64,000 bases of DNA from an uncultured Thermococci archaeon (GCA_964549615.1 CAZJVP010000072.1:29312-93311); one strand, 5' to 3'; shown: positions 11,494 to 57,894, counted from the first letter of the stretch. Translations and numbers: made by a program. The notes: generated from the letters alone by a model not told the origin.

Positions 11494-11848
11494 CCGGCTC
11501 GACGGCAACGCCCAGCGCGCAAGTAAGACTTAATAGCTTGCACCCAGAGCAAGGCTTCTCGGCCAAGGCCTGTTCAGCAGGATCCGTGGCCGATGCACAG
11601 GAAGGCAGCTTGCGGCCAACCCGGCGGACTAGGCGGGAGGCTAGGCGTCTCCTGTCACCCGAAATCGTCTATACGCGGGGCTGAATGCCGCGGGGCGGTT
11701 CGGCCGCGGGACGTTGGGCCCGGGTCCCGAACGTTGACTCTCCGTCCCTCAGGGTCGGTGGATGTGGGGCCCCCTTCGGAGGAAGGCGGCAACCACATTT
11801 GCTTTCCGAACCCCACCAGGCCGGGAACGGAGCAGTGGTAGGAAAGAC

Positions 11849-13549
11849 ATGCGGCGCTTGAGGGGCAACGGGGACGAGGTAAGGCTCGACAAGCCCACGT
11901 CCCGCGACGGGCCCACCCGCGGATGTTCGGCGGGGTCGAAGCAGGCTGCCCGATGGACGGACGGATGGACATGGGAAGGGACGGAGTTCTACGTCTCTGA
12001 CTACAACGACATCGCCCTCGAAAGGGCAAGGCTGCCCGAGCGAGTAGCGATTTTTGACACGACGCTCAGGGACGGCGAGCAGACGCCGGGCGTCTCCCTG
12101 ACCGTTGACGAGAAGATACGGATCGCTTGCGCGTTAAATGAACTGGGCGTGGACACCATAGAGGCCGGATTCCCAGCAACATCGGAGGGAGAACTGAAAG
12201 CCATATCCGAAATAGCCGGCCTTGGGCTGAAGAGCGAGATCTGCGCCCTGGCACGGTCCAACCAGAAGGACATCGACCTAGCGTTGAGCTCCGGGGTCAG
12301 CTGCATCCACACGTTCATCGCGACCTCGGACATACACCTGAAACACAAGTTGAAGATGACGAGGGATGAAGCCCTGCAGAAGGCTGTCGAGACCATAACA
12401 TACGCCAAGGAACACGGGGTCGTCGTTGAGTTCTCTGCCGAGGATGCGACGAGGACCGAGCTTGGGTACCTGCTCAGGGTCTACTCAGCTGCCCAGGACG
12501 CAGGCGCTGACAGGATAAACGTCCCGGACACGGTGGGCGCCATGATACCGAGGGCTATGGGGTATCTGGTTGGCAGGGTATGCGAGGCCGTGAAAGTTCC
12601 CGTCTCTGTGCACTGCCACAATGATTTCGGGATGGCCGAGGCGAACTCGCTGGCATCCGTGGAGAACGGCGCGACACAGGTTCACGTCACCGTCAACGGT
12701 CTGGGGGAGAGGGCGGGAAACGCCTCCCTGGAGGAGGTGGTGATGTCCCTGCACTCCTTCTATGGCATCAAGACCAGCATCGTGACCCAGAAGATCTGTC
12801 CGACGTCCCAGCTCGTCTCGCGCCTGACGGGCATTCCCGTGCAGCCCAACAAGGCAATCGTGGGCGAGAATGCCTTCGCGCACGAGTCCGGCATACACGT
12901 CCACGGGGTGCTCGAGTCCGCAGCGACCTATGAGCCGCTGATGCCCGAGATGGTCGGGAGCACCCGGCGGATCGTCCTAGGCAAACACACGGGAGCGCAT
13001 GCCATATCGGCCAAGCTCGGCGAGATGGGCATCAAGGCCACGGAGGCGCAGGTATCCGAGATCGCCCAGCGGGTCAAGAAGATAGGCGACATGGGCAAGG
13101 GGATCACCGACGCCGACCTCATGGCCATAGCGGAGGCCGTCATAGGCAAAGTCCCAGAGGGCAAGCGAACGCTGGAGCTGGTGAACCTGACGGTGGTAAC
13201 CGGCGACAGGACCATACCTACTGCATCACTGGCGCTCATCGTGGACGGCAAGCGAGTTGAAGGTGCCAGCATAGGGGACGGCCCTGTGGACGCTGCGATA
13301 AAGACGATAAAAGATGTCATCAGGGATTTTGGCAAGGTCGAATTGAAAGAGTACCGGCTCGAAGCCATCACCGGAGGTAGCGATGCGGTTGCGGAGGTCA
13401 CAGTCAAGGTGATTGACGATCTGGGCAACCTTGCGACGGCCCGGGGCGTTAGCACCGACATAGTCATGGCGAGCGTTGAGGCCATGATTGAAGCGGTCAA
13501 TAGGCTGTTCGCCAAGAGAGGGAAGGAAGGAGGAAAGCCAAGTGGCTGA
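11849..13549 (+). CDS. leuA: 2-isopropylmalate synthase / (R)-citramalate synthase family
   Basis: Motifs FDTTLRDGEQ and HCHNDFGMA. C-terminal LeuA-dimer regulatory domain. The ORF track starts at 11762. First in-frame ATG is at 11849, which still leaves a ~55-aa N-terminal extension, so the true start may be later. Confidence 0.9.
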   Translation: MRRLRGNGDEVRLDKPTSRDGPTRGCSAGSKQAARWTDGWTWEGTEFYVSDYNDIALERARLPERVAIFDTTLRDGEQTPGVSLTVDEKIRIACALNELGVDTIEAGFPATSEGELKAISEIAGLGLKSEICALARSNQKDIDLALSSGVSCIHTFIATSDIHLKHKLKMTRDEALQKAVETITYAKEHGVVVEFSAEDATRTELGYLLRVYSAAQDAGADRINVPDTVGAMIPRAMGYLVGRVCEAVKVPVSVHCHNDFGMAEANSLASVENGATQVHVTVNGLGERAGNASLEEVVMSLHSFYGIKTSIVTQKICPTSQLVSRLTGIPVQPNKAIVGENAFAHESGIHVHGVLESAATYEPLMPEMVGSTRRIVLGKHTGAHAISAKLGEMGIKATEAQVSEIAQRVKKIGDMGKGITDADLMAIAEAVIGKVPEGKRTLELVNLTVVTGDRTIPTASLALIVDGKRVEGASIGDGPVDAAIKTIKDVIRDFGKVELKEYRLEAITGGSDAVAEVTVKVIDDLGNLATARGVSTDIVMASVEAMIEAVNRLFAKRGKEGGKPSG

Positions 13550-45038: not shown

Positions 45039-45977
45039 TCAAAGCAGCGAACACAGATAATCCACGGCCGCCTCGGCTATGCTGCGATCCGTCACCTCTT
45101 GCAGTCCCTGCCAGCCTGGGAAGGCGTTGACTTCCAGCACGTAGTAGTCTCCCTCTACGGAGGGCAGAATGTCCACCCCAACGATCTCGCCGCCAACGGC
45201 CTCGGCGGCCTGCAATGCGATCTCATCCACATCGTCTTGGGAAGGGAGGGGCTGCGCCCCGGCAGATATGTTGGTCCTCCAGCCTTGGGGATTGAACCTC
45301 CTCATCTTCGAAACGACCTCGCCACCTATCACGAGCGCCCTGATGTCGTACTGTGGATGTTCGATGAACCTCTGAACGTAGATGACGTCCTTACCGTACT
45401 TAGCCTGGAACCATGAGACGTAGTCAACGATGTCCCCCTCCCTCATCTCCTCTGGGATCATTATGATTCCCCTGCCTTGCAGCCCCGTTATCGGCTTCAG
45501 AACGCAGGGCCTGTTGGACCTGATGAAATCAACGGCAAGATGAACGCTCTCGGTGATCAGAGTCGTGGGCATCCTCACTCCTCTTGAGACCATCCTCAGC
45601 GTCATGCTCACCTTGTTTCTGCAGGTCTCTATCGTCTCGATCGAGTTCACGATCCTCGTGCCCCGTGAGCGGAGCTGCCTTAGGAACTCGAGTTTGTAGA
45701 GCGCCTCGGGCAACTGGTCGAAGCCCAATGAGATCACGTATATCAGGTCGTAGAAGAGCTCATCCCCAGCCATCCTGAGCGAGTCGTACGAGCATTCAAC
45801 CGTCCCGTCCCGAACCTCTGTTGCAAAAAGCCATGGAAAGATTGCCTGGTGCGGGATGCGCCTGCCGGACAGTATCGGCTCCAGTTGACGGAGCCTCCAG
45901 CTCTCAGGGTTGACTCCCAGTAGACCGATCAAGGTGAAGCCCCTATCCAACCCCGAAGCGAGCGAACGATTTAACAC
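45039..45977 (-). CDS. RimK-family ATP-grasp ligase (alpha-L-glutamate/peptide ligase-like)
   Basis: ATP-grasp fold motifs (VLKPITGLQGRGI, VQRFIE, VLEVNAFPG). 312 aa. Confidence 0.8.
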   Translation of the reverse strand: MLNRSLASGLDRGFTLIGLLGVNPESWRLRQLEPILSGRRIPHQAIFPWLFATEVRDGTVECSYDSLRMAGDELFYDLIYVISLGFDQLPEALYKLEFLRQLRSRGTRIVNSIETIETCRNKVSMTLRMVSRGVRMPTTLITESVHLAVDFIRSNRPCVLKPITGLQGRGIIMIPEEMREGDIVDYVSWFQAKYGKDVIYVQRFIEHPQYDIRALVIGGEVVSKMRRFNPQGWRTNISAGAQPLPSQDDVDEIALQAAEAVGGEIVGVDILPSVEGDYYVLEVNAFPGWQGLQEVTDRSIAEAAVDYLCSLL

Positions 45978-49076: not shown

Positions 49077-50336
49077 TCAGCTCCTTCGCGTGGTGCCCAC
49101 TGCCCTGTAGAGCCTGCGCCGCACCATTAGAGACCAGATGGCGACGCCGGCGACCATGAGGGCCCCAGAGACGGACATATACTCTATGAGATACACCCAG
49201 AGGAGGGCCCTCGACTTCGCCTCCATCGCCGCTCGCTCGGCCGCGCTGAACTCTTCCTCGAGCTTCTCAATCCACTCGAGAGCGCCGGGATAGTCCTCCT
49301 GCAAATACCTCGAGTCAACCTCCTTCTTGGCGGCCTTCACGGCCTTGAGCTTCTCATCGACCTCCTTCGTGCTTGCCCCGAAGTTCTCGATGAAACTCAG
49401 GAAGTCTCCGATCAAGGCGAGACGAGTTGAATAACTCTGAAAGCTCGCCCTGATGGTGTGCATCATTACCGGGTCATCTGGGCACTCCATGCCAACGACG
49501 AAATAGTCTAGGTTCAGGACGAAATCGATCCAGTAGGTCCAGCGGTCCTGCCAGATCCCGGATCCCTTGTAGAAGCCGTGGAGGTCGCAGGTGAACGAGA
49601 GCGCCCGGCCATTACCCACATCCCAGTAGGCAAGGAGGGGCTCTTTCTGCGGCCGCACCTCCATGACTAGCTTGCACCCTTCTTTCAGGGTCACTTGGTT
49701 TATCTCCATCAGGGGAGGCGCAGACTCGAAGGGCAGAGACCTCGTCAGAGTGTTTTCCTCAAGAACCCTCACCCACATCGGACCCGTGACGAATTTCTGG
49801 GTGAGCGAATTGGTCGGGAGGAGGTTCACGTCCAGGTAGCTGCCCTCCCACGTGGAGTGGGCCTGTGGCCCTCCGCCGAAGCCGCGGTAGCCGTCGGTCA
49901 TGGCCAACCCCATGCCGCCCTCCTTGACCGCCCTCGTGAAGTGTACCTGCCAGGCACCGGAGATCACGTTCTCGTCGCATCCCGAGAGTTGAACCATGTC
50001 GTAGCGGGACACAAGCTCATCATAGGTTCGCGGGAAGTAAACGCGCATGGCGCGATCGATATCCTCCTGCGTGTTTCCGTACATCCCGCCCTCCCCCCAC
50101 CAGACGGTTATCGCGGGTATCAGCGTCGGCTTGATCTTCGGGTCCGAAAGGAAGATCAAACCGGGCTTGGTGCCCCAGAACGGCGAGCCGATGTAGAGAA
50201 GCCTGAGCCTTCCCGTCTCCGGGTCCAACCTCTTCTGCATGCCAGAGACCATCCCACCTGCGAGGAGCAGCACGGCGACGATGATCCCTATGATCCGATG
50301 ACAAATGAGATTGGATTTAGGCTGCAACGCTCCCAC
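49077..50336 (-). CDS. paralog 3 of the secreted, C-terminally membrane-anchored protein family
   Basis: Signal-like N-terminus (IIGIIVAVLLLAGGMVSG). Motifs LDPETGRLRLLYIGSPFWG, MRVYFPRTYDELV, GGMGLAMTDG. C-terminus LLWVYLIEYM...SLMVRRRLYRAV. Confidence 0.7.
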   Translation of the reverse strand: MGALQPKSNLICHRIIGIIVAVLLLAGGMVSGMQKRLDPETGRLRLLYIGSPFWGTKPGLIFLSDPKIKPTLIPAITVWWGEGGMYGNTQEDIDRAMRVYFPRTYDELVSRYDMVQLSGCDENVISGAWQVHFTRAVKEGGMGLAMTDGYRGFGGGPQAHSTWEGSYLDVNLLPTNSLTQKFVTGPMWVRVLEENTLTRSLPFESAPPLMEINQVTLKEGCKLVMEVRPQKEPLLAYWDVGNGRALSFTCDLHGFYKGSGIWQDRWTYWIDFVLNLDYFVVGMECPDDPVMMHTIRASFQSYSTRLALIGDFLSFIENFGASTKEVDEKLKAVKAAKKEVDSRYLQEDYPGALEWIEKLEEEFSAAERAAMEAKSRALLWVYLIEYMSVSGALMVAGVAIWSLMVRRRLYRAVGTTRRS

Positions 50337-50485: not shown

Positions 50486-52162
50486 GTGCGGAGGCGTAAG
50501 GTGAATCGCACGTCACCCATGGCAGGTCAGCAAATGAAATCGAAGGATCTCTCGGCATCCTGGGGAGTGCAGCTCCATAAGCCCCGGGAGGTCGATCGCA
50601 CCTACGTCGCCGTTAGGGACGGCACCAAGTTGTACGTCGAGGTCTATCGGCCCGATTCACCGGGTAGGTTCCCGGCAATACTTCTCATGAACCCGTACCA
50701 TAACGTCAGCGTGCCGCCGCATTCCAGGACGAAGTCCAACCACATCGAGTTCACCTCCAGGGGATACGCCGTGGTAGAGTCGGAGGTGAGAGGAACCGGC
50801 ATCTCCGAGGGGAAGTTCTTCTTCCTTCGCAATGACGGAAAGGACGGATACGACATCATTCGTTGGATCAGGGATCAGCCTTGGTGCGACGGTAACGTTG
50901 GCCTGATGGGCGCCTCCTACCTCGGAATGGACCAGTTCCCGATCGCCGCCCGCAATCCGCCAGGCCTGAAGGCGATGTTTGTGGGCGTCGCCGGCGCCGA
51001 CCTTTATGGCGATATGGTGTACCCCGGAGGCATATTGAACACGATGATACTCAGGTGGGCGGTCAATCACGCAGCGCACCTCCTGCCGCCTTGGGTTCCG
51101 CAGCTCTTCGATATGCCTCAGGAGATAGACCCTAGGATCTACGAGATGCAGGAGAAGATCCATTGCCAAAGGACGCAGCTCATGATCAAACAAGCGCTCG
51201 AAGGGGGCGGGCTCTACGACAACGACTTCCTCAAGGAATGGATTTCGCATCCCACCGACGGCCCGTTCTGGAGGCAGGACTCCCCATACAACTTCTTCAA
51301 GAGCATCCGCACCCCGGTATACTGCCAGGGGGGCTGGTTCGACTTTTTCATAGCAGGAACGATAAGGAGCTTCGTCGAGATCGATGCACCGAAGAAGCTC
51401 CTCATCGGCCCATGGTTCCACGGCGGAAAGGAAGGGTGCGACCTACTGGGGGTTCAGCTTCGATGGTTTGACTACTGGTTGAAGGGAATCCAGAACGGCA
51501 TCATGGAGGAGCCGCCCGTGCGAGTCTTCGTCATGGGCAAGGACGAATGGAGATTCGAGGATGGTTGGCCTCCAAAGTCTCGGACAATGCGCCTATACCT
51601 GAGGCGTGGAGAGCCGAATCCACGTCATAGCTTGAACGACGGCCTTCTGTCCACGAAGCCCGCGGCTGCGGACGAGGAGCCGGACAGAATCTCGCACGAC
51701 CCAGCAAATCTTGTTCCGAGCGTTGCGTTCAGGAATGCGGACATAAGACGAGCGGAGAGGGCCTGCCTCACCTACACCACCGAGCCCCTCAGCAAGGACA
51801 TCGAGCTGAACGGTAACGTCGAGCTCCTGCTGAACGCATCGACAAACGCGTTCGATGTCGATTGGTTCGCGAAGCTGACCCGCGTGATCCCTGAAGGAGA
51901 TTCGATCGTGATTTCATCTGGAGTCCTGAGAGCTTCCCACCGCCGATCGCACGAGCATCCGCAGAAACTGGTTCCCGGACGCGTCTATGCCATGAGGATC
52001 GTGATGTCCCCTCTCTGCATTCTGATTCCGAAGGGACATCGCTTGAGATTGGACTTGGCCAACAGCGACTTTCCCCACTTCGCGCCGAACCTTGTTGCCT
52101 CTGATAACGAAGTGTATCACGACGCAAGGCATCGGTCTTGCCTGATCTTGAGCGTGAGATAG
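50486..52162 (+). CDS. CocE/NonD-family alpha/beta hydrolase (X-Pro dipeptidyl-peptidase-like)
   Basis: Nucleophile elbow GASYLG. PAILLMNPY N-terminal alpha/beta region. C-terminal beta-sandwich domain. Start may be the internal MKSKDL. Confidence 0.8.
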   Translation: MRRRKVNRTSPMAGQQMKSKDLSASWGVQLHKPREVDRTYVAVRDGTKLYVEVYRPDSPGRFPAILLMNPYHNVSVPPHSRTKSNHIEFTSRGYAVVESEVRGTGISEGKFFFLRNDGKDGYDIIRWIRDQPWCDGNVGLMGASYLGMDQFPIAARNPPGLKAMFVGVAGADLYGDMVYPGGILNTMILRWAVNHAAHLLPPWVPQLFDMPQEIDPRIYEMQEKIHCQRTQLMIKQALEGGGLYDNDFLKEWISHPTDGPFWRQDSPYNFFKSIRTPVYCQGGWFDFFIAGTIRSFVEIDAPKKLLIGPWFHGGKEGCDLLGVQLRWFDYWLKGIQNGIMEEPPVRVFVMGKDEWRFEDGWPPKSRTMRLYLRRGEPNPRHSLNDGLLSTKPAAADEEPDRISHDPANLVPSVAFRNADIRRAERACLTYTTEPLSKDIELNGNVELLLNASTNAFDVDWFAKLTRVIPEGDSIVISSGVLRASHRRSHEHPQKLVPGRVYAMRIVMSPLCILIPKGHRLRLDLANSDFPHFAPNLVASDNEVYHDARHRSCLILSVR

Positions 52163-52629
52163 AATCGATTCTGAGCGGCGCGACGGCATAGAAAGGAAAA
52201 CATCACGGTCGAGAAGAAAAGGGAACAATTTTATAGCGAGGCGCGCACAAGTTGGCCCGTAACTCGAATGCAAACAGGGAGAGATGCGTGAGACCTCACA
52301 GCAGAGAATGCGCGAAGGTCGTCATCATTCTCATCCAAGAGGCAGATGATAGCAGGCGAGTATGCATTCCCAATTTGGGCGGTCGATGAACTTCTTACTG
52401 ACGACCACGCCCAATCAGATCACGCAGAGCCAAAGGCTCCTGATGAGCATGTCCTACCACACGCGCTCGGCAGGGCGCGGCAGGCGCCACATCTTCGATT
52501 CTCGGACTGCCTTGCACCGCTCGCCGGACCAGGTCGCTCGTCCGATTCCTGCCGCTAGGCGCGGTTCGCATCTGGAAGGTATCACGCTAACTGGGTGTTT
52601 GATGGGAGACCCAGGGAAGGGTTGGAAAG

Positions 52630-54825
52630 ATGGAAGGAAGTGAAGACGATTCCGATCCGGGCAGTAGTCTTGGTAGCGGGAGCGTTAACAGCAAAAGTAA
52701 TGGGGAAAACAACGGGAACGGTTCGGTGTATGAGAGGCTGAGGCAGCTCGGCGCAAACATGGACGAGATAGATCGGGTGAAAAGGAAATACCCGATGAAG
52801 ATCACGAGGTACTACCTCAGCCTCATAGAGCACAAGGGCGATCCCATATGGAAGCAGGCGGTGCCTGCCGCTGAGGAACTCGAGGACAATTTCAACGTAG
52901 AAGATCCTCTCAGGGAGGAGGTGCATACCCCTGTCCCCTGCCTTGTGCACAAGTACCCTGACAGGGTGCTCTTACTGGCAAGCAGCTTGTGTGCGATGTA
53001 CTGCAGGTTCTGCACCAGGAAGAGGAAGGTAGGCAGGATACAGCAGATTCCGATGGAGGACATCTTCCGCGCGATAGATTACATCAAGGAGCACAAGGAG
53101 GTGAGGGACGTCATCGTGTCGGGCGGCGATCCGCTCATGAGGCCCGACGACGAGATAGAGGAGATACTCAAGAGATTGAGGCAGATCCCGCACGTCGAGA
53201 TCATCAGGATAGGGACGAGGATGCCGTGTGTTGCGCCCCAGAGAATCACCCCCCGGCTGGTGGGCATGCTCAAGAAGTACCATCCACTTTTCGTGAACGT
53301 TCACTTCAACCATCCGAGGGAGATCACCCCGGAATCATCGGCGGCCTTGAACCTGCTTGCGGACGCAGGCATACCACTGGGCAGTCAGACGGTATTGCTG
53401 AGGGGCGTCAACGACGATCCACATGTCATGATGGAACTCATGCACCGGTTGATCAAAAACCGCGTCAAGCCCTATTACATCTACCAGTGTGACCTCGTGA
53501 AGGGCGTCGAACACTTCAGGACGCCTGTCCAGACGGGCATCGAGATAATCAGAAGCCTCCAAGGCTTCACGTCGGGTCTCTGCGTTCCCCACTTCGTGAT
53601 AGACGGGCCGGGAGGCAAGGTGCCGGTTTCGCCCCAGTACGTCAAAGAGATAACGCCCGACCAGATAGTGGTCACCAACTTCATGAACAACCTCTATACC
53701 TACCCGGGGCTGGTACGAAATCAGGAGAAGCAACTGGCGAACAAGAAGGTGAAGAGGATCGGGATCGCGTTCAACCTGAAGAAGGAGTTGGGCAAGACGG
53801 ACAGGTTCGACAAGTACTCGGAATTCGATGACCTCGAAACCATAAACGCGATAAGGTTGGCCATCGAGAAGGCTGGGTACGACGTGGTCCTGCTAGAGGC
53901 CGACCGGGACTTCACGTTCAACCTCAGGGAGGCTAACGTCGACTTCGTTTTCAACATCGCCGAGGGCATTCAGGGGGAGTGCAGGGAATCCCATGTCCCC
54001 GCCATACTCGAGATGTTCAACATCCCGTACACCGGGTCGGGCGTCCTGACGCAGGCGATAACGCTCAACAAGAGCAGGAAGAAGGAGATACTCAGCTACT
54101 ACGGCATACCGACCCCGAGGTGGCAGATATTCAGGAATACCAACCAGAAGCTCGATCCACTGCTTTCATTTCCGCTCATAGTGAAGCCCGATGCGGAGGG
54201 CTCGAGCGTAGGCATAACGAACGACAGCCTAGTCTTCGATGCAATATCGCTGAAGAAGCAGGTCAGCAAGATACTCAGGGAGTACAAGCAACCGGCGCTC
54301 GTTGAGGAGTATGTCGATGGCAGGGAGTTCACGGTGTCGCTCCTTGGCAACCCCCCCAAGGTCCTGCCCATCATCGAGATAAACTTTGACCATCTCCCGG
54401 ATGGCCTGCACAAGTTCGATTCCTGGGAGGCGAAATGGATATACGATAATCCCAGCAGCCCCATCGATCCCTTGATCGTCCCGGCTGACCTGAAGCCCAA
54501 GCTGAAGGCGCAGATCGAAAGGGTCGCCAAGCAGACGTTCGAGAAGCTCGGGTGCGTCGACCTAGCGAGAATAGACATACGGCTGAACCGCGAAGGAGTG
54601 CCTTACGTCCTGGATGTGAACGCCCTCCCGGGACTCATGCCAGATCCGAAGAAGAACTCCAGATTCCCAAGGTCCTGCTATGCTGCGGGGATGACGTACG
54701 ACGACATCATACTTGCCATCCTCCATTCCGCAATGAAGAGGTATAACCTGCTTCTTGAGCCCGTGAGGGAGCCTGCCAGCGCCAGGAACGGGAAGACGGC
54801 GCCCCTAGAGGGTGAGGCCGGCTGA
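52630..54825 (+). CDS. fusion protein: KamA-family radical-SAM 2,3-aminomutase (N) + D-Ala-D-Ala-ligase-type ATP-grasp (C)
   Basis: Low-complexity N-terminus, then KamA-family features (KYPMKITRYYLSLIE, CAMYCRFC = CxxxCxxC, VSGGDPL). C-half has Ddl-like motifs IGIAFNLKKE, IPYTGSG, LIVKPDAEGSSVGI, EEYVDGREFTV, LDVNALPG. Confidence 0.85.
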   Translation: MEGSEDDSDPGSSLGSGSVNSKSNGENNGNGSVYERLRQLGANMDEIDRVKRKYPMKITRYYLSLIEHKGDPIWKQAVPAAEELEDNFNVEDPLREEVHTPVPCLVHKYPDRVLLLASSLCAMYCRFCTRKRKVGRIQQIPMEDIFRAIDYIKEHKEVRDVIVSGGDPLMRPDDEIEEILKRLRQIPHVEIIRIGTRMPCVAPQRITPRLVGMLKKYHPLFVNVHFNHPREITPESSAALNLLADAGIPLGSQTVLLRGVNDDPHVMMELMHRLIKNRVKPYYIYQCDLVKGVEHFRTPVQTGIEIIRSLQGFTSGLCVPHFVIDGPGGKVPVSPQYVKEITPDQIVVTNFMNNLYTYPGLVRNQEKQLANKKVKRIGIAFNLKKELGKTDRFDKYSEFDDLETINAIRLAIEKAGYDVVLLEADRDFTFNLREANVDFVFNIAEGIQGECRESHVPAILEMFNIPYTGSGVLTQAITLNKSRKKEILSYYGIPTPRWQIFRNTNQKLDPLLSFPLIVKPDAEGSSVGITNDSLVFDAISLKKQVSKILREYKQPALVEEYVDGREFTVSLLGNPPKVLPIIEINFDHLPDGLHKFDSWEAKWIYDNPSSPIDPLIVPADLKPKLKAQIERVAKQTFEKLGCVDLARIDIRLNREGVPYVLDVNALPGLMPDPKKNSRFPRSCYAAGMTYDDIILAILHSAMKRYNLLLEPVREPASARNGKTAPLEGEAG

Positions 54826-54889
54826 GCCTGGCCTCAGCCTTCTCGTGAAGATTCTTATATCCCCCGGGCCAAATCAGGGGCGACCAGGG

Positions 54890-56500
54890 ATGAAGGTAGG
54901 TATCCTCTACAACGTGGTTGAGACCGTGGAGAGGGGCCTGGACAGCGACAAACAGTCGGATAATGAGATACTGGAGGTTCAACAGCACGTGCGGGCAGCC
55001 CTCCAGGACGATCATGATGTTATCCCCGTCAAGGTCACTAGGACCATCTTCACGCGGTTGGACAAGGAAAGCTTCGATATCATATTCAACCTATGTGAAG
55101 GGTACATGGGAAACGTCCATGGAGAATCATGGATAGCCGGGTTCCTTGACCTTCTGGGAATACCCTACACTGGCTCGGACGCGTTCACCCTGGGGCTCTG
55201 CCTTGACAAGGCGAGAACGAAGGACGTCCTCCGGGCGAACGGGATTCCGACCCCTAGCTACCAGGTCTTTCAGCAGGCAGAGGATCCCCTCCAACAGGAC
55301 ATGAAGTTCCCCCTGATTGTCAAGCCGCTCCACGAGGACGGGAGCGTCGGCATAGACCAAGACTCCGTCGTGCTGAACGAGGAGAAGCTGAGGGCCCGGG
55401 TCGCCTACGTGATCAAGACCTACCGGCAGCCCGCTCTCGTTGAGGAGTTCGTGGATGGTAGAGAGCTAAACGTCGCGATAATGGGCAATCCGCCCGACTT
55501 GGAGGTTCTCCCGATATCTGAGATAATCTTCAACATGAAGGAAGGGAACCACAAGATAGTGGATTTCAACGCCAAGTGGGTTGCGACATCGGAAACCTAC
55601 AAGTCGACCGTGGGAGTTTGCCCCGCTGAGCTGGACAAGGATCTGGAGCAGAGGGTCAAGGACATTGCAGTGAGGGCCTACATTCTAACGAGGTGCAGGG
55701 ACTACGCAAGGGTAGATTTGAGGGTTAGGGATGGCGTCCCTTACGTATTGGAGGTGAATCCGAACCCTGGGTTGGACCATGACGGCGGGTTCGCAAGGAG
55801 CGCGAGGGCAAGCGGATTGGACTACAACCAGATGATAAAGAAGATACTGCAATTGGCAGTCGTTCGAACGAAGGCACGCTCCAAAGAACGATCCCGCAAG
55901 AAAAGGTTCGAAACGGACACGCTGAGGGCGCGGGAGGTCCGCCTCGAGGACATCCCCGTGCTCCTCCAGTGGTTCAACGACACGGTCATATCGAAGTTCA
56001 TGGACGACCCCGGCTCGATCGAGACGGAGGAAAGCCTCATAGAGAAGTTCTTCGTGAAGATTCCCAACGACATAGACCTGCTGGTAGAGGCGAAGGCGAC
56101 GGGCAAACCACTCGGGTACTGCTCTATCTATGACATAGACAGGGTGAACGACAGCGCGGAGATATCGTTTCTCATAGGTGATGGCGAGCAACGTGGGAGA
56201 GGCTACGGCAACGAGATCGTCAGACTTATAGTCCGCATCTGCTTTGAGAGCCTCGGTCTCAACAGGGTCATAGCGTCGGCCACCACGGAGAACATTATGT
56301 CGATCAAGGCACTTCAGGCAGCAGGGTTCAGGAGGGTGGGCCTCCTCAGGGAATACCAGGTGGTGGACGGGAAGAGGTATGACGAGGTGCTTTTTGAGAT
56401 GCTCAAGGAGGACTATCTGAAGCTCCAACCGACAGCCCAACCCTCGACACAAACCCCGACACAAACCCCGACACAGGTCCCCCAAGCAACAGTCCGGTGA
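54890..56500 (+). CDS. fusion protein: D-Ala-D-Ala-ligase-type ATP-grasp (N) + GNAT acetyltransferase (C)
   Basis: Ddl-like motifs VGILYNV, IPYTGSD, LIVKPLHEDGSVGI, EEFVDGRELNV, LEVNPNPG, paralogous to the C-half of the upstream gene. GNAT motif A (QRGRGYGNEIV). TQTPTQTPTQ low-complexity tail. Confidence 0.8.
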   Translation: MKVGILYNVVETVERGLDSDKQSDNEILEVQQHVRAALQDDHDVIPVKVTRTIFTRLDKESFDIIFNLCEGYMGNVHGESWIAGFLDLLGIPYTGSDAFTLGLCLDKARTKDVLRANGIPTPSYQVFQQAEDPLQQDMKFPLIVKPLHEDGSVGIDQDSVVLNEEKLRARVAYVIKTYRQPALVEEFVDGRELNVAIMGNPPDLEVLPISEIIFNMKEGNHKIVDFNAKWVATSETYKSTVGVCPAELDKDLEQRVKDIAVRAYILTRCRDYARVDLRVRDGVPYVLEVNPNPGLDHDGGFARSARASGLDYNQMIKKILQLAVVRTKARSKERSRKKRFETDTLRAREVRLEDIPVLLQWFNDTVISKFMDDPGSIETEESLIEKFFVKIPNDIDLLVEAKATGKPLGYCSIYDIDRVNDSAEISFLIGDGEQRGRGYGNEIVRLIVRICFESLGLNRVIASATTENIMSIKALQAAGFRRVGLLREYQVVDGKRYDEVLFEMLKEDYLKLQPTAQPSTQTPTQTPTQVPQATVR

Positions 56501-56679: not shown

Positions 56680-57894
56680 ATGAGAACATTGGGCTGCTTC
56701 TGTTCCGCCAAGCATGTTTGGATCCTGGTAGCCTTACTTCTTGTGATCTGGCTGGCCCCTGCGGTCCCGGGCGCCAAGGAGGATCTGAGGATCAACTGTT
56801 TCCTGCTGGGCTCGGTCTTGCGGGGAATCTGTCCCCTTCCAGAGTATTTCTCTGAGGACCCCCTCTTCACGTACGAATCCGACCCTCAACAGGCCGGTCT
56901 CTCACTAGAGGAGAGGAAGAGGCTCGATCGCCTTTACTTCCCGCGCAACAAGCAGACCCTGATCACCAAGTTTGACATGTACTTCGTCTACGACCCCCGC
57001 CTTGACCATTTCACGCCGAGACAGTTCATGGACCTCTATGAAGCATCTGTCGAGGAGGGGATGCCCTCGCTTTGGGCCTTCGGGCCTTCATATGGCTACA
57101 TCTGCCAGACCATCCTTAACGACGTCCTGCCCATATCAGCCTACGATGGCTACTACCACAAACCTTGGCACGTGGTATTCCGCAGGAATTTGGAGCCCGT
57201 TTTCACGCCTTTCATCGAGCTCGGGATGGAGAGAGTGCCAGGGGAGGCCTACGGTCGGATGCAGCCGCGCCAGGGCACGGTCACCTGGGCGGACATGAAG
57301 CCCTTCGATCTCCCTTGGATGGTTTCCTGGAGGCCCGGGCCAAAGGGAGGGCTGTCGTGGGTCTGCGCCGACGAGTTCAACGTGGTTTGGTGGGCCCTGA
57401 CCTTGGAGACTAGGGGTATGAATCCCTACGCCATAGACCTCATGACCAACTTGGTCCTTTACTCCCTGAACAGGCCGTTGATAAGTGACATCCAGCTCAG
57501 GCGTAACGCTAGGGCGAGGCTTTCGAGCTTCAGGTCCGAGGTGATCGGCATACTCTCGATGTTGGAGTTCGCGGACAAGTTCGGAGCCAACACCATCCCG
57601 CTATCAAAGAGGATCGCGGAGTTGGAATCCGACGTTCAGGATGCGCGGGACAGGTACCTCGAGCAGGACTACGCGAATTCGATAAGCCTCACCGAGGCAG
57701 CATCACAGACCCTCGCGAAGATAGGAACCGATGCTGTGCGCCTGAAGGATCAGGCGCTCTTCTGGGTTTTCGTGTCCGAGTGGCTTACCGTAACCGCGGC
57801 ATCCTTGTTCGGCGGAGCAGTAGTGTGGACGCTGATGATCCGCAGAAAGATGTACAGAGCCGTCAAGGTAACTAGGGTCAAGCCAAGCTACTGA
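56680..57894 (+). CDS. paralog 4 of the secreted, C-terminally membrane-anchored protein family
   Basis: Signal peptide HVWILVALLLVIWLAPAVPGA. Motif LYFPRNKQTL. C-terminus LFWVFVSEW...TLMIRRKMYRAV. Confidence 0.7.
   Translation: MRTLGCFCSAKHVWILVALLLVIWLAPAVPGAKEDLRINCFLLGSVLRGICPLPEYFSEDPLFTYESDPQQAGLSLEERKRLDRLYFPRNKQTLITKFDMYFVYDPRLDHFTPRQFMDLYEASVEEGMPSLWAFGPSYGYICQTILNDVLPISAYDGYYHKPWHVVFRRNLEPVFTPFIELGMERVPGEAYGRMQPRQGTVTWADMKPFDLPWMVSWRPGPKGGLSWVCADEFNVVWWALTLETRGMNPYAIDLMTNLVLYSLNRPLISDIQLRRNARARLSSFRSEVIGILSMLEFADKFGANTIPLSKRIAELESDVQDARDRYLEQDYANSISLTEAASQTLAKIGTDAVRLKDQALFWVFVSEWLTVTAASLFGGAVVWTLMIRRKMYRAVKVTRVKPSY

Follow-up and report, generated by a model that had tools for sequence, protein, structure and literature searches.

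The AblA/AblB pair of methanogens and the YodO/YodP pair of Bacillus combine a KamA-clade lysine 2,3-aminomutase with a GNAT acetyltransferase and give a lysine-derived cytoplasmic solute, the AblA/AblB pathway leading to N-epsilon-acetyl-beta-lysine (PMC3543383). In the N-acetylglutaminylglutamine amide (NAGGN) pathway of Sinorhizobium and Pseudomonas a single polypeptide, Ngg, both acetylates and ligates, yielding an N-acetylated dipeptide osmolyte (PMC8070244). In the EpmB/EpmA system, which beta-lysylates elongation factor P (EF-P), a KamA-family enzyme feeds beta-lysine to an ATP-dependent amide-forming enzyme. The bifunctional glutathione synthetase GshF (GshAB) fuses an enzyme whose product is an unusual amino-acid intermediate to an ATP-grasp domain, resembling that of D-Ala-D-Ala ligase (Ddl), which consumes it. 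Here we describe two adjacent genes in a 64,000-nucleotide stretch of DNA (the window) from an uncultured Thermococci archaeon (GCA_964549615.1, CAZJVP010000072.1:29312-93311), in which a KamA-family aminomutase, two Ddl-type ATP-grasp ligases and a GNAT acetyltransferase are joined in two fusion proteins. We read them, with about even confidence, as a self-contained cytoplasmic pathway of four activities to a small N-acetylated beta-lysine amide conjugate.

Set against AblA/AblB, the two ATP-grasp ligases are integral to this gene set (the cassette; one to three ligases in relatives) and are fused to both partners. Like Ngg, gene 2 unites a GNAT domain and an amide-bond-forming ligase in one protein; unlike Ngg, the ligase comes before the GNAT and is of Ddl type, the GNAT has no Ngg family match, no AsnO-type amidotransferase is conserved among the cassette neighbours, and the inferred substrate is beta-lysine, not glutamine. 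GshF differs in its upstream enzyme and substrates, and performs one ligation only, with no acetylation. EpmA is a paralogue of aminoacyl-tRNA synthetases rather than an ATP-grasp enzyme, and no efp linkage was found in 169 loci.

Gene 1 (52630-54825, + strand, 731 aa) is defined by its open reading frame (ORF), its Pfam and NCBIfam domains and its PDB matches, and encodes a KamA-family lysine 2,3-aminomutase followed by an ATP-grasp ligase (ligase 1, or grasp1). Gene 2 (54890-56500, + strand, 536 aa counted from its ATG) is defined by its ORF, its domains and the starts of its homologues, and encodes a second ATP-grasp ligase (ligase 2, or grasp2) followed by a GNAT domain. The longest ORF of gene 2 opens at an alternative start, GTG 54812. 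All homologues begin MK[VI]GILYN, which corresponds to ATG 54890, and three independent gene calls concur, so we take that ATG as the true start. With it, the two co-directional + strand ORFs and the 64-nt gap of the initial annotation, which had been made from the sequence by a model, are as described. An identical gene 1 protein is encoded on contigs of ENA, JGI and Logan assemblies, and the fusion is therefore not an assembly artefact.

The aminomutase domain occupies 52762-53778 (+; residues ~45-383). The radical S-adenosylmethionine (SAM) [4Fe-4S] cluster motif CAMYCRFC is seen directly at 52990-53013 (+; residues 121-128). Pfam places Radical_SAM at residues 120-268 (E 8e-17), LAM_C at residues 307-362 and Dala_Dala_lig_C at residues 489-698 (E 1e-33). 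The best NCBIfam match, over residues 45-383, is the lysine 2,3-aminomutase AblA at 448.7 bits, which is under the equivalog cut-off of 525.4. The KamA subfamily model TIGR00238 is passed (293.3 against 199.2), while the EpmB-type model fails (237.8 bits against a cut-off of 369.3), as do the glutamate- and arginine-type models. The closest PDB match is the Clostridium subterminale lysine 2,3-aminomutase (LAM) 2a5h (E 7e-118), with Ddl structures at E 2e-32 and weaker, and Foldseek puts the KamA domain at 55% identity to 2a5h.

Aligned with 2a5h, residues C121/C125/C128, R130, D288, D325 and K330 of gene 1 correspond to LAM C125/C129/C132, R134, D293, D330 and K337, so that K330 falls on the pyridoxal phosphate lysine and R130 on the carboxylate-binding Arg134. 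Each of these residues is invariant across 58 diverse fusion proteins and occurs in essentially all of the 120 top homologues. In LAM, Asp293 and Asp330 bind the epsilon-ammonium group of lysine, and in glutamate 2,3-aminomutase they are replaced (by Lys and Asn). The comparison of lysine and glutamate enzymes that the initial annotation had proposed thus comes out on the lysine side, both lysine-specifying aspartates being invariant, and the domain, which is predicted to be active, reads as lysine-type or at least as specific for a cationic side chain.

The domain also departs from LAM at its C-terminal end. The LAM_C match covers only the first 58 of 127 model positions, so that most of the LAM C-terminal region is absent. 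An Asp stands where LAM has Cys268, which we take to be a zinc ligand, and nothing matches the cysteine-rich C-terminal stretch of 2a5h (CNCDVC), since gene 1 runs into the ligase domain at that point. The stand-alone KamA of the bacterial cassette has the same C-terminal truncation. From these features and the sub-threshold AblA score, cassette KamA would form a distinct KamA subfamily.

Ligase 1 lies at 53752-54759 (+; residues ~375-710) and was delimited by its PRK01372 match, Foldseek and its catalytic residues; it has a complete Ddl fold. The PRK01372 Ddl model matches residues 403-703 at 193.9 bits, under its cut-off of 243. Ligase 2 (54890-55879, +) matches Dala_Dala_lig_C at E 6e-36, and its best Ddl model scores 191.1 bits against the same cut-off value. 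Neither reaches any Ddl or Van cut-off among the 25 best NCBIfam matches listed. The two share 38% identity over 332 aa (E 3e-74), are nearer to each other than to any Ddl, and are true paralogues. Foldseek returned only 2a5h and Ddl structures, the latter with target-normalised template-modelling scores of 0.83-0.87. In an AlphaFold2 model of gene 1 both domains are confident (mean predicted local distance difference test score 88.3) and the linker at residues 363-368 is disordered.

An alignment to Escherichia coli DdlB comprised 89 sequences of ligase 1 and 74 of ligase 2, with a reference sequence confirmed to be identical to 1iov/2dln. Both families keep DdlB K97, K144, E180, E187, K215, R255, D257, E270 and N272, and thus share with Ddl and VanA, besides the fold, every catalytic residue for ATP, Mg and the acyl phosphate. 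As the catalytic set is intact, both should be active ATP-dependent carboxylate-amine ligases. Other positions differ from Ddl. H63 is changed to Glu, Y216 to Trp, M259 to Arg and L282 to Cys or Gly in both families; ligase 1 alters E68 (to Arg), and ligase 2 alters S150 (to Ala), G149, G276 and H280 (all to Asp). Ligase 1 retains equivalents of Ser281 and Arg255, which in Ddl bind the acceptor carboxylate, and carries an N-domain insertion, Y-[AS]-E-[FWY]-D, in which the Glu and the Asp are invariant. With their D-Ala-binding positions altered, neither ligase looks like a Ddl, and the enrichment of invariant acidic residues in the predicted pockets fits cationic substrates. A further difference from Ddl lies in the context, since the window host is an archaeon, which does not synthesise murein, and the ligases are linked to KamA or polyamine genes.

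The GNAT domain of gene 2 (55922-56389, +) is of the Acetyltransf_3 type (Pfam E 2e-21). Among solved structures it is closest to AAC(6'), spermidine N1-acetyltransferase and diamine N-acetyltransferases. The best NCBIfam matches are AAC(6'), PseH and SpeG, all under cut-off, and neither the AblB nor the Ngg family is among all 15 NCBIfam matches of the domain. The archaeal cassettes carry an Acetyltransf_3 domain, whereas the bacterial ones carry a small GNAT of the Acetyltransf_7/1 type (64 of the first 84 loci); since these are different subfamilies, the acetyltransferase slot has been filled twice. The GNAT is an accessory enzyme, recruited twice and, on its family matches, not AblB-like. 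The only solved structure of a cassette-type protein is also a GNAT, 2r7h, which matches a bacterial cassette GNAT (L043:11984-12466) at E 1.6e-21. It was deposited as 'Putative D-alanine N-acetyltransferase', a merely putative assignment, and our guess is that this name was taken over from 'D-Ala-D-Ala ligase' genes next to it. Taken together, these matches bear out the domain composition given in the initial annotation, which had a KamA-family domain with CAMYCRFC and a Ddl-type ATP-grasp in gene 1, and in gene 2 a paralogous ATP-grasp fused to a GNAT.

The occurrence of the cassette was surveyed with a ligase 1 profile scan over one genome per species, which gave at least 594 confirmed matches, of which 80 were kept; a metagenome scan added 80 loci, and home-built hidden Markov models were mapped onto all loci. 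The set that recurs over 167 related loci is KamA, ligase 1 and ligase 2, with or without the GNAT. KamA stands beside the ligases in 115 of the 167, and in 66 of the 77 loci that have at least 3.5 kb of flank on either side. The carriers span at least ten phyla, including cultured Asgard archaea (these without KamA), reduced DPANN and common anaerobic bacteria. In bacteria the cassette is a tight and often overlapping operon of four separate genes, grasp1-grasp2-GNAT-kamA, found in Ignavibacteriota, Bacteroidota, relatives of Chlorobi, Gemmatimonadota, Desulfuromonadales, Aminicenantes and others, with Ignavibacterium album as a clean example in which the genes overlap. In Omnitrophota and Planctomycetota the order is two ligases and then kamA; in Bathyarchaeia it is (GNAT)-kamA-grasp1, with grasp2 on the other strand; Methanocellales have three genes, kamA, grasp1 and grasp2::GNAT; and a Woesearchaeota-like contig has KamA::grasp1 with two more ligases and no GNAT.

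The number of ligases per cassette ranges from one to three. A fully syntenic relative of the window, locus L092 (79% identity), has a third ATP-grasp gene (L092:3314-4342, 343 aa) between gene 1 and gene 2, where the window has its 64-nt gap (54826-54889). This third ligase is of a subtype, 'TYDL...RIGN', that is also found in Omnitrophota cassettes and in P0115. No transporter, carrier protein, peptidase or other partner is conserved at the loci beyond lineage synteny, such as RecG in Ignavibacteria. The fusions are therefore the form that one lineage has given to a very widespread cassette and not the unit itself: the conserved operons and fusions back the functional coupling of aminomutase, ligases and acetyltransferase that the initial annotation had proposed, whereas its fused two-gene architecture does not hold as the unit, the bacteria having four separate genes.

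Two observations were made at the margins of this survey. A GTPase gene of the elongation factor G (EF-G) family lies within about 2.5 kb of a ligase or KamA gene in L069, L074, L166, L115, L167, L082 and L087, and at about 4 kb in L086; in three of these, L069 (12303-14342), L074 (12380-14356) and L166, it follows directly downstream on the same strand. This seems more than a rough estimate of chance would give, but several of these loci come from related lineages. On a Mesorhizobium sp. AR10 plasmid (L170; NZ_CP080523.1, 24072-26429) an annotated lysine 2,3-aminomutase adjoins an ATP-grasp protein, the match having 33% identity to gene 1 over 84% of its length. Near this pair are an aspartate 1-decarboxylase, a biotin-carboxylase-like ATP-grasp and a MATE exporter, and the locus may be a distant variant with a secreted product.

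Which enzyme works with which is indicated by a fusion census of 243 retrieved proteins. KamA::grasp1 was found 113 times, grasp1::KamA six times, grasp2::GNAT 85 times and grasp::grasp 22 times; KamA was joined to grasp2, and GNAT to grasp1, in none. KamA thus has ligase 1 as its sole fusion partner among the ligases, in both orders, and the GNAT has ligase 2. Because KamA and ligase 1 were fused independently and in both orders, ligase 1 probably works directly with the KamA product; because the GNAT is fused to ligase 2 only, the acetyltransferase probably works with ligase 2. We regard the fusions as strong evidence for both pairings. GshF offers a parallel for the first of them.

These pairings, with the active-site residues, suggest the following course for the pathway. 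The KamA domain would convert L-lysine to beta-lysine, its class and lysine-type site being read from the sequence. Ligase 1 would then use beta-lysine directly and form a first amide bond through an acyl phosphate, as the exclusive KamA-ligase 1 fusions suggest; tentatively, beta-lysine would be the acyl donor and a carboxylate-bearing amine the acceptor. Ligase 2, with its intact catalytic set and distinct substrate positions, would form a second and different amide bond. The GNAT, given its exclusive fusion to ligase 2, would N-acetylate a free amine of the ligase 2 substrate or product. Lineages with one or three ligases may make shorter or longer versions. The product that we infer is an acetylated di- or oligopeptide of beta-lysine. 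A small cationic substrate is suggested because the ligases are Ddl-like, rather than RimK- or TTL-like, and because the nearest solved relatives of the GNAT acetylate aminoglycosides, spermidine and diamines; the lack of a conserved transporter or carrier protein also speaks for a small molecule. The likeliest role is that of a stress solute or a polyamine-like cation, akin to N-epsilon-acetyl-beta-lysine or NAGGN, rather than one in cell-wall or protein chemistry.

Several findings weigh against this pathway as drawn. Carriers of the cassette include groundwater and freshwater genomes and reduced DPANN, a poor fit to a purely salt-induced osmolyte, so a purely halophilic osmolyte is argued against. 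The GNAT is absent from 14 of the 66 well-flanked KamA loci, and acetylation may therefore be optional. Channelling between the two domains of gene 1 is unsupported by the AlphaFold2 model, in which the predicted template-modelling score of 0.53 and the disordered linker make the docking of the domains uninformative. Finally, some cassettes have no KamA beside them, and their ligases have essentially the conserved positions of the KamA-linked ones; either those genomes have a KamA elsewhere or the ligase pockets do not recognise beta-lysine.

The KamA-less loci have a context of their own. In 11 loci the ligases have no adjoining KamA and stand beside a SpeY-type enzyme (a homologue of deoxyhypusine synthase) and a pyruvoyl arginine decarboxylase (PvlArgDC), in some with an agmatinase too. 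In bacteria the trio of SpeY, arginine decarboxylase and agmatinase is a homospermidine pathway (PMC13625781, PMC10981699). In nine bacterial loci and one archaeal locus the ligases are on the same strand as this module, usually in one operon; in Promethearchaeum the module genes are just upstream of the ligases on the opposite strand. In the ligase 1 tree the nine bacterial loci fall into one clade and so count as one event; Promethearchaeum syntrophicum and L090, both archaeal, represent further events of their own. The L090 ligase 1 is the nearest to that of the window and lies in one overlapping operon with SpeY (577.5 bits, cut-off 500) and PvlArgDC; the contig ends inside this ligase 1, which may therefore be fused to a KamA. 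Overlapping both its grasp2::GNAT gene and a SpeY gene, L090 has in the same operon an IPCT/DIPPS-like gene (L090:2618-3955; cytidylyltransferase::CDP-alcohol transferase), which matches 4mnd at E 2e-56, falls under the equivalog cut-off and was found at this single locus only. Enzymes of IPCT/DIPPS type make di-myo-inositol phosphate, a thermo- and osmoprotective solute. In one bacterial operon of SpeY type a third ATP-grasp gene, which is RimK-like (L014:7254-8159, 301 aa), separates the arginine decarboxylase from grasp1, and the GNAT is followed by a gene for a SAM methyltransferase.

The placing of KamA-less cassettes beside a homospermidine-type module suggests a chemistry of polyamine-like compounds or stress solutes. 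The two amines of beta-lysine are spaced as in putrescine, a 1,4-diamine. We considered whether KamA and the SpeY module are alternative suppliers read by diverged ligases. This is not supported: essentially no clade-specific differences of specificity type separate the ligases of KamA loci from those of SpeY/arginine decarboxylase loci. With the ligases so alike in both types of locus, the likelier readings are that they recognise a shared moiety or that KamA is elsewhere in those genomes. A bolder proposal, which we hold as a tentative possibility, is that acetylated beta-lysine oligo-amides are a new class of metabolite that acts as, or is joined to, a polyamine and can physiologically replace homospermidine or cooperate with it; such a class would be shared by lineages as far apart as Ignavibacteriota and Desulfobacterota on one side and Thermoplasmatota, DPANN and Asgard archaea on the other.

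The alternative that survives best, although we think it unlikely, takes the polyamine as a substrate. Beta-lysine would be the acyl donor and homospermidine or agmatine the acceptor, with one ligase for each amino group, after which the GNAT would acetylate; KamA and SpeY/arginine decarboxylase would then be two precursor suppliers of one product, and the operons would differ in which supplier adjoins. The absence of specificity-type differences between the ligases of the two kinds of locus agrees with such a conjugate, and so do the SpeY and PvlArgDC operon around the nearest relative of the window's ligase 1, the invariant acidic residues of the ligase pockets and the resemblance of the GNAT to spermidine and diamine acetyltransferases. 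However, KamA and the polyamine module were demonstrated together in none of the 167 loci, the nine bacterial SpeY-type loci amount to one evolutionary event, and the window has neither a deoxyhypusine synthase nor an arginine decarboxylase gene. Ligase 1, moreover, retains equivalents of the acceptor-carboxylate binders Ser281 and Arg255.

An oligo- or poly-beta-lysine would also accommodate paralogous ligases that number from one to three and have acid-rich pockets. The ligases would start and extend an isopeptide chain serving as a polycationic substitute for polyamines or as a nitrogen store, and the GNAT would cap or neutralise it; its weak family matches include streptothricin (beta-lysine) N-acetyltransferases. 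We nevertheless consider such a polymer decidedly unlikely, as the substrate positions differ consistently between the two ligase families, which speaks for two reactions rather than iteration, no degrading enzyme or exporter is conserved at the loci, and KamA-less cassettes exist.

Modification of a protein, the other conserved cellular use of beta-lysine being that on EF-P, would make the cassette an ATP-grasp counterpart of EpmA/EpmB or of hypusination, with beta-lysine, a further residue and an acetyl group put on a translation factor or another protein. Homologues of deoxyhypusine synthase adjoin the ligases in 11 loci, and EF-G-family genes are close to ligase or KamA genes, directly downstream in the three loci named above. 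Against this, neither efp nor aIF5A was found in 169 loci (2.19 Mb) or in the window, and the deoxyhypusine synthase homologues are polyamine enzymes of SpeY type with agmatinase and arginine decarboxylase partners (PMC13625781). The KamA is AblA-like (448.7 bits) and falls well short of the EpmB model, and the ligases belong with the Ddl-like, small-molecule clade rather than with RimK or TTL, so we judge a protein target very unlikely. That the genes are an AblA/AblB-type pair beside genuine cell-wall D-Ala-D-Ala ligases, as the domain names alone would have it, is effectively excluded by the archaeal host (shown by its signal recognition particle RNA), the ligase scores below every Ddl cut-off among the 25 best matches listed, the altered D-Ala-binding residues, a GNAT that is not AblB, and fusions and operon conservation over many phyla that would not be expected of unrelated functions.

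The window is archaeal. Its signal recognition particle RNA is of archaeal type (11622-11932, +; 186 bits, Rfam), it also encodes an ADP-dependent sugar kinase, an Hps-Phi fusion and an aldehyde:ferredoxin oxidoreductase, and the closest named homologues of both genes are in Thermoplasmatota genomes. Upstream of gene 1 is a CocE/NonD (S15) hydrolase (50486-52162, +), reported in the initial annotation behind a 466-bp gap; the hydrolase is confirmed (TIGR00976, 365 bits, cut-off 66), and the gap is actually 467 nt. We reject it as a member of the pathway and as a conserved part of the cassette, since among 89 loci tblastn matches it only on the window's own contigs; a truncated ORF homologous to it is visible in the syntenic relative L092.

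The intergenic spaces were also examined. Rfam at gathering thresholds gave no regulatory RNA in the ~470-nt gaps and nothing in the window except the signal recognition particle RNA; on seven bacterial loci it gave one tRNA and nothing else. The apparent gap between grasp2 and kamA in bacteria is rejected as a site for an RNA or small gene, the space being taken by a 160-aa GNAT gene. The gap upstream of gene 1 has 68% identity to the syntenic relative, against 79% in coding sequence, and contains no conserved block. A 93-aa ORF in it (52362-52643, +) is unsupported, with only that 68% identity in the relative and no gene called.

Two membrane-anchored GATase1_like proteins (49077-50336, -, and 56680-57894, +) lie on either side of the S15 hydrolase and the cassette. 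The two are distantly paralogous (24% identity, E 2e-25) and have the same C-terminal helix and basic tail. A RimK/glutathione-synthetase-type ATP-grasp gene (312 aa; 45039-45977, -) lies 6.6 kb upstream of gene 1 and adjoins a gene for a 584-aa HATPase_c_3 protein; it is unrelated to the cassette ligases.

The initial annotation had not recognised the architecture as a known pathway, and we likewise found no curated family, functionally characterised structure or paper for it. No NCBIfam or Pfam model is specific to the cassette ligases or GNATs, and in public records the proteins bear generic names: 'KamA family radical SAM protein', 'GNAT family N-acetyltransferase' and 'D-alanine-D-alanine ligase'. 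Our search of the full-text literature gave no description of the cassette; a passing prediction in Iyer et al. 2009 (Mol Biosyst, on ATP-grasp amidoligases) is possible. The enzymes are of known kinds and their logic resembles that of AblAB and of NAGGN synthesis; the combination and the presumed product are new.

For annotation, the label 'D-alanine-D-alanine ligase' is actively misleading in archaea. Ligases of Ddl fold with specificity for a beta-amino acid would have value as biocatalysts. The cassette is directly testable, as cultured carriers such as Ignavibacterium album hold it as a compact four-gene operon. If our reading is true, the cassette would represent a third use for beta-lysine, in a four-enzyme pathway to an unnamed metabolite that is present in well over a hundred sampled loci, with a possible tie to polyamine and stress-solute physiology through its homospermidine-type and IPCT/DIPPS-like neighbours. 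Under the bolder proposal of a polyamine-like oligo-amide, the main role of KamA in many anaerobes would lie outside lysine fermentation, N-epsilon-acetyl-beta-lysine synthesis and the modification of EF-P.

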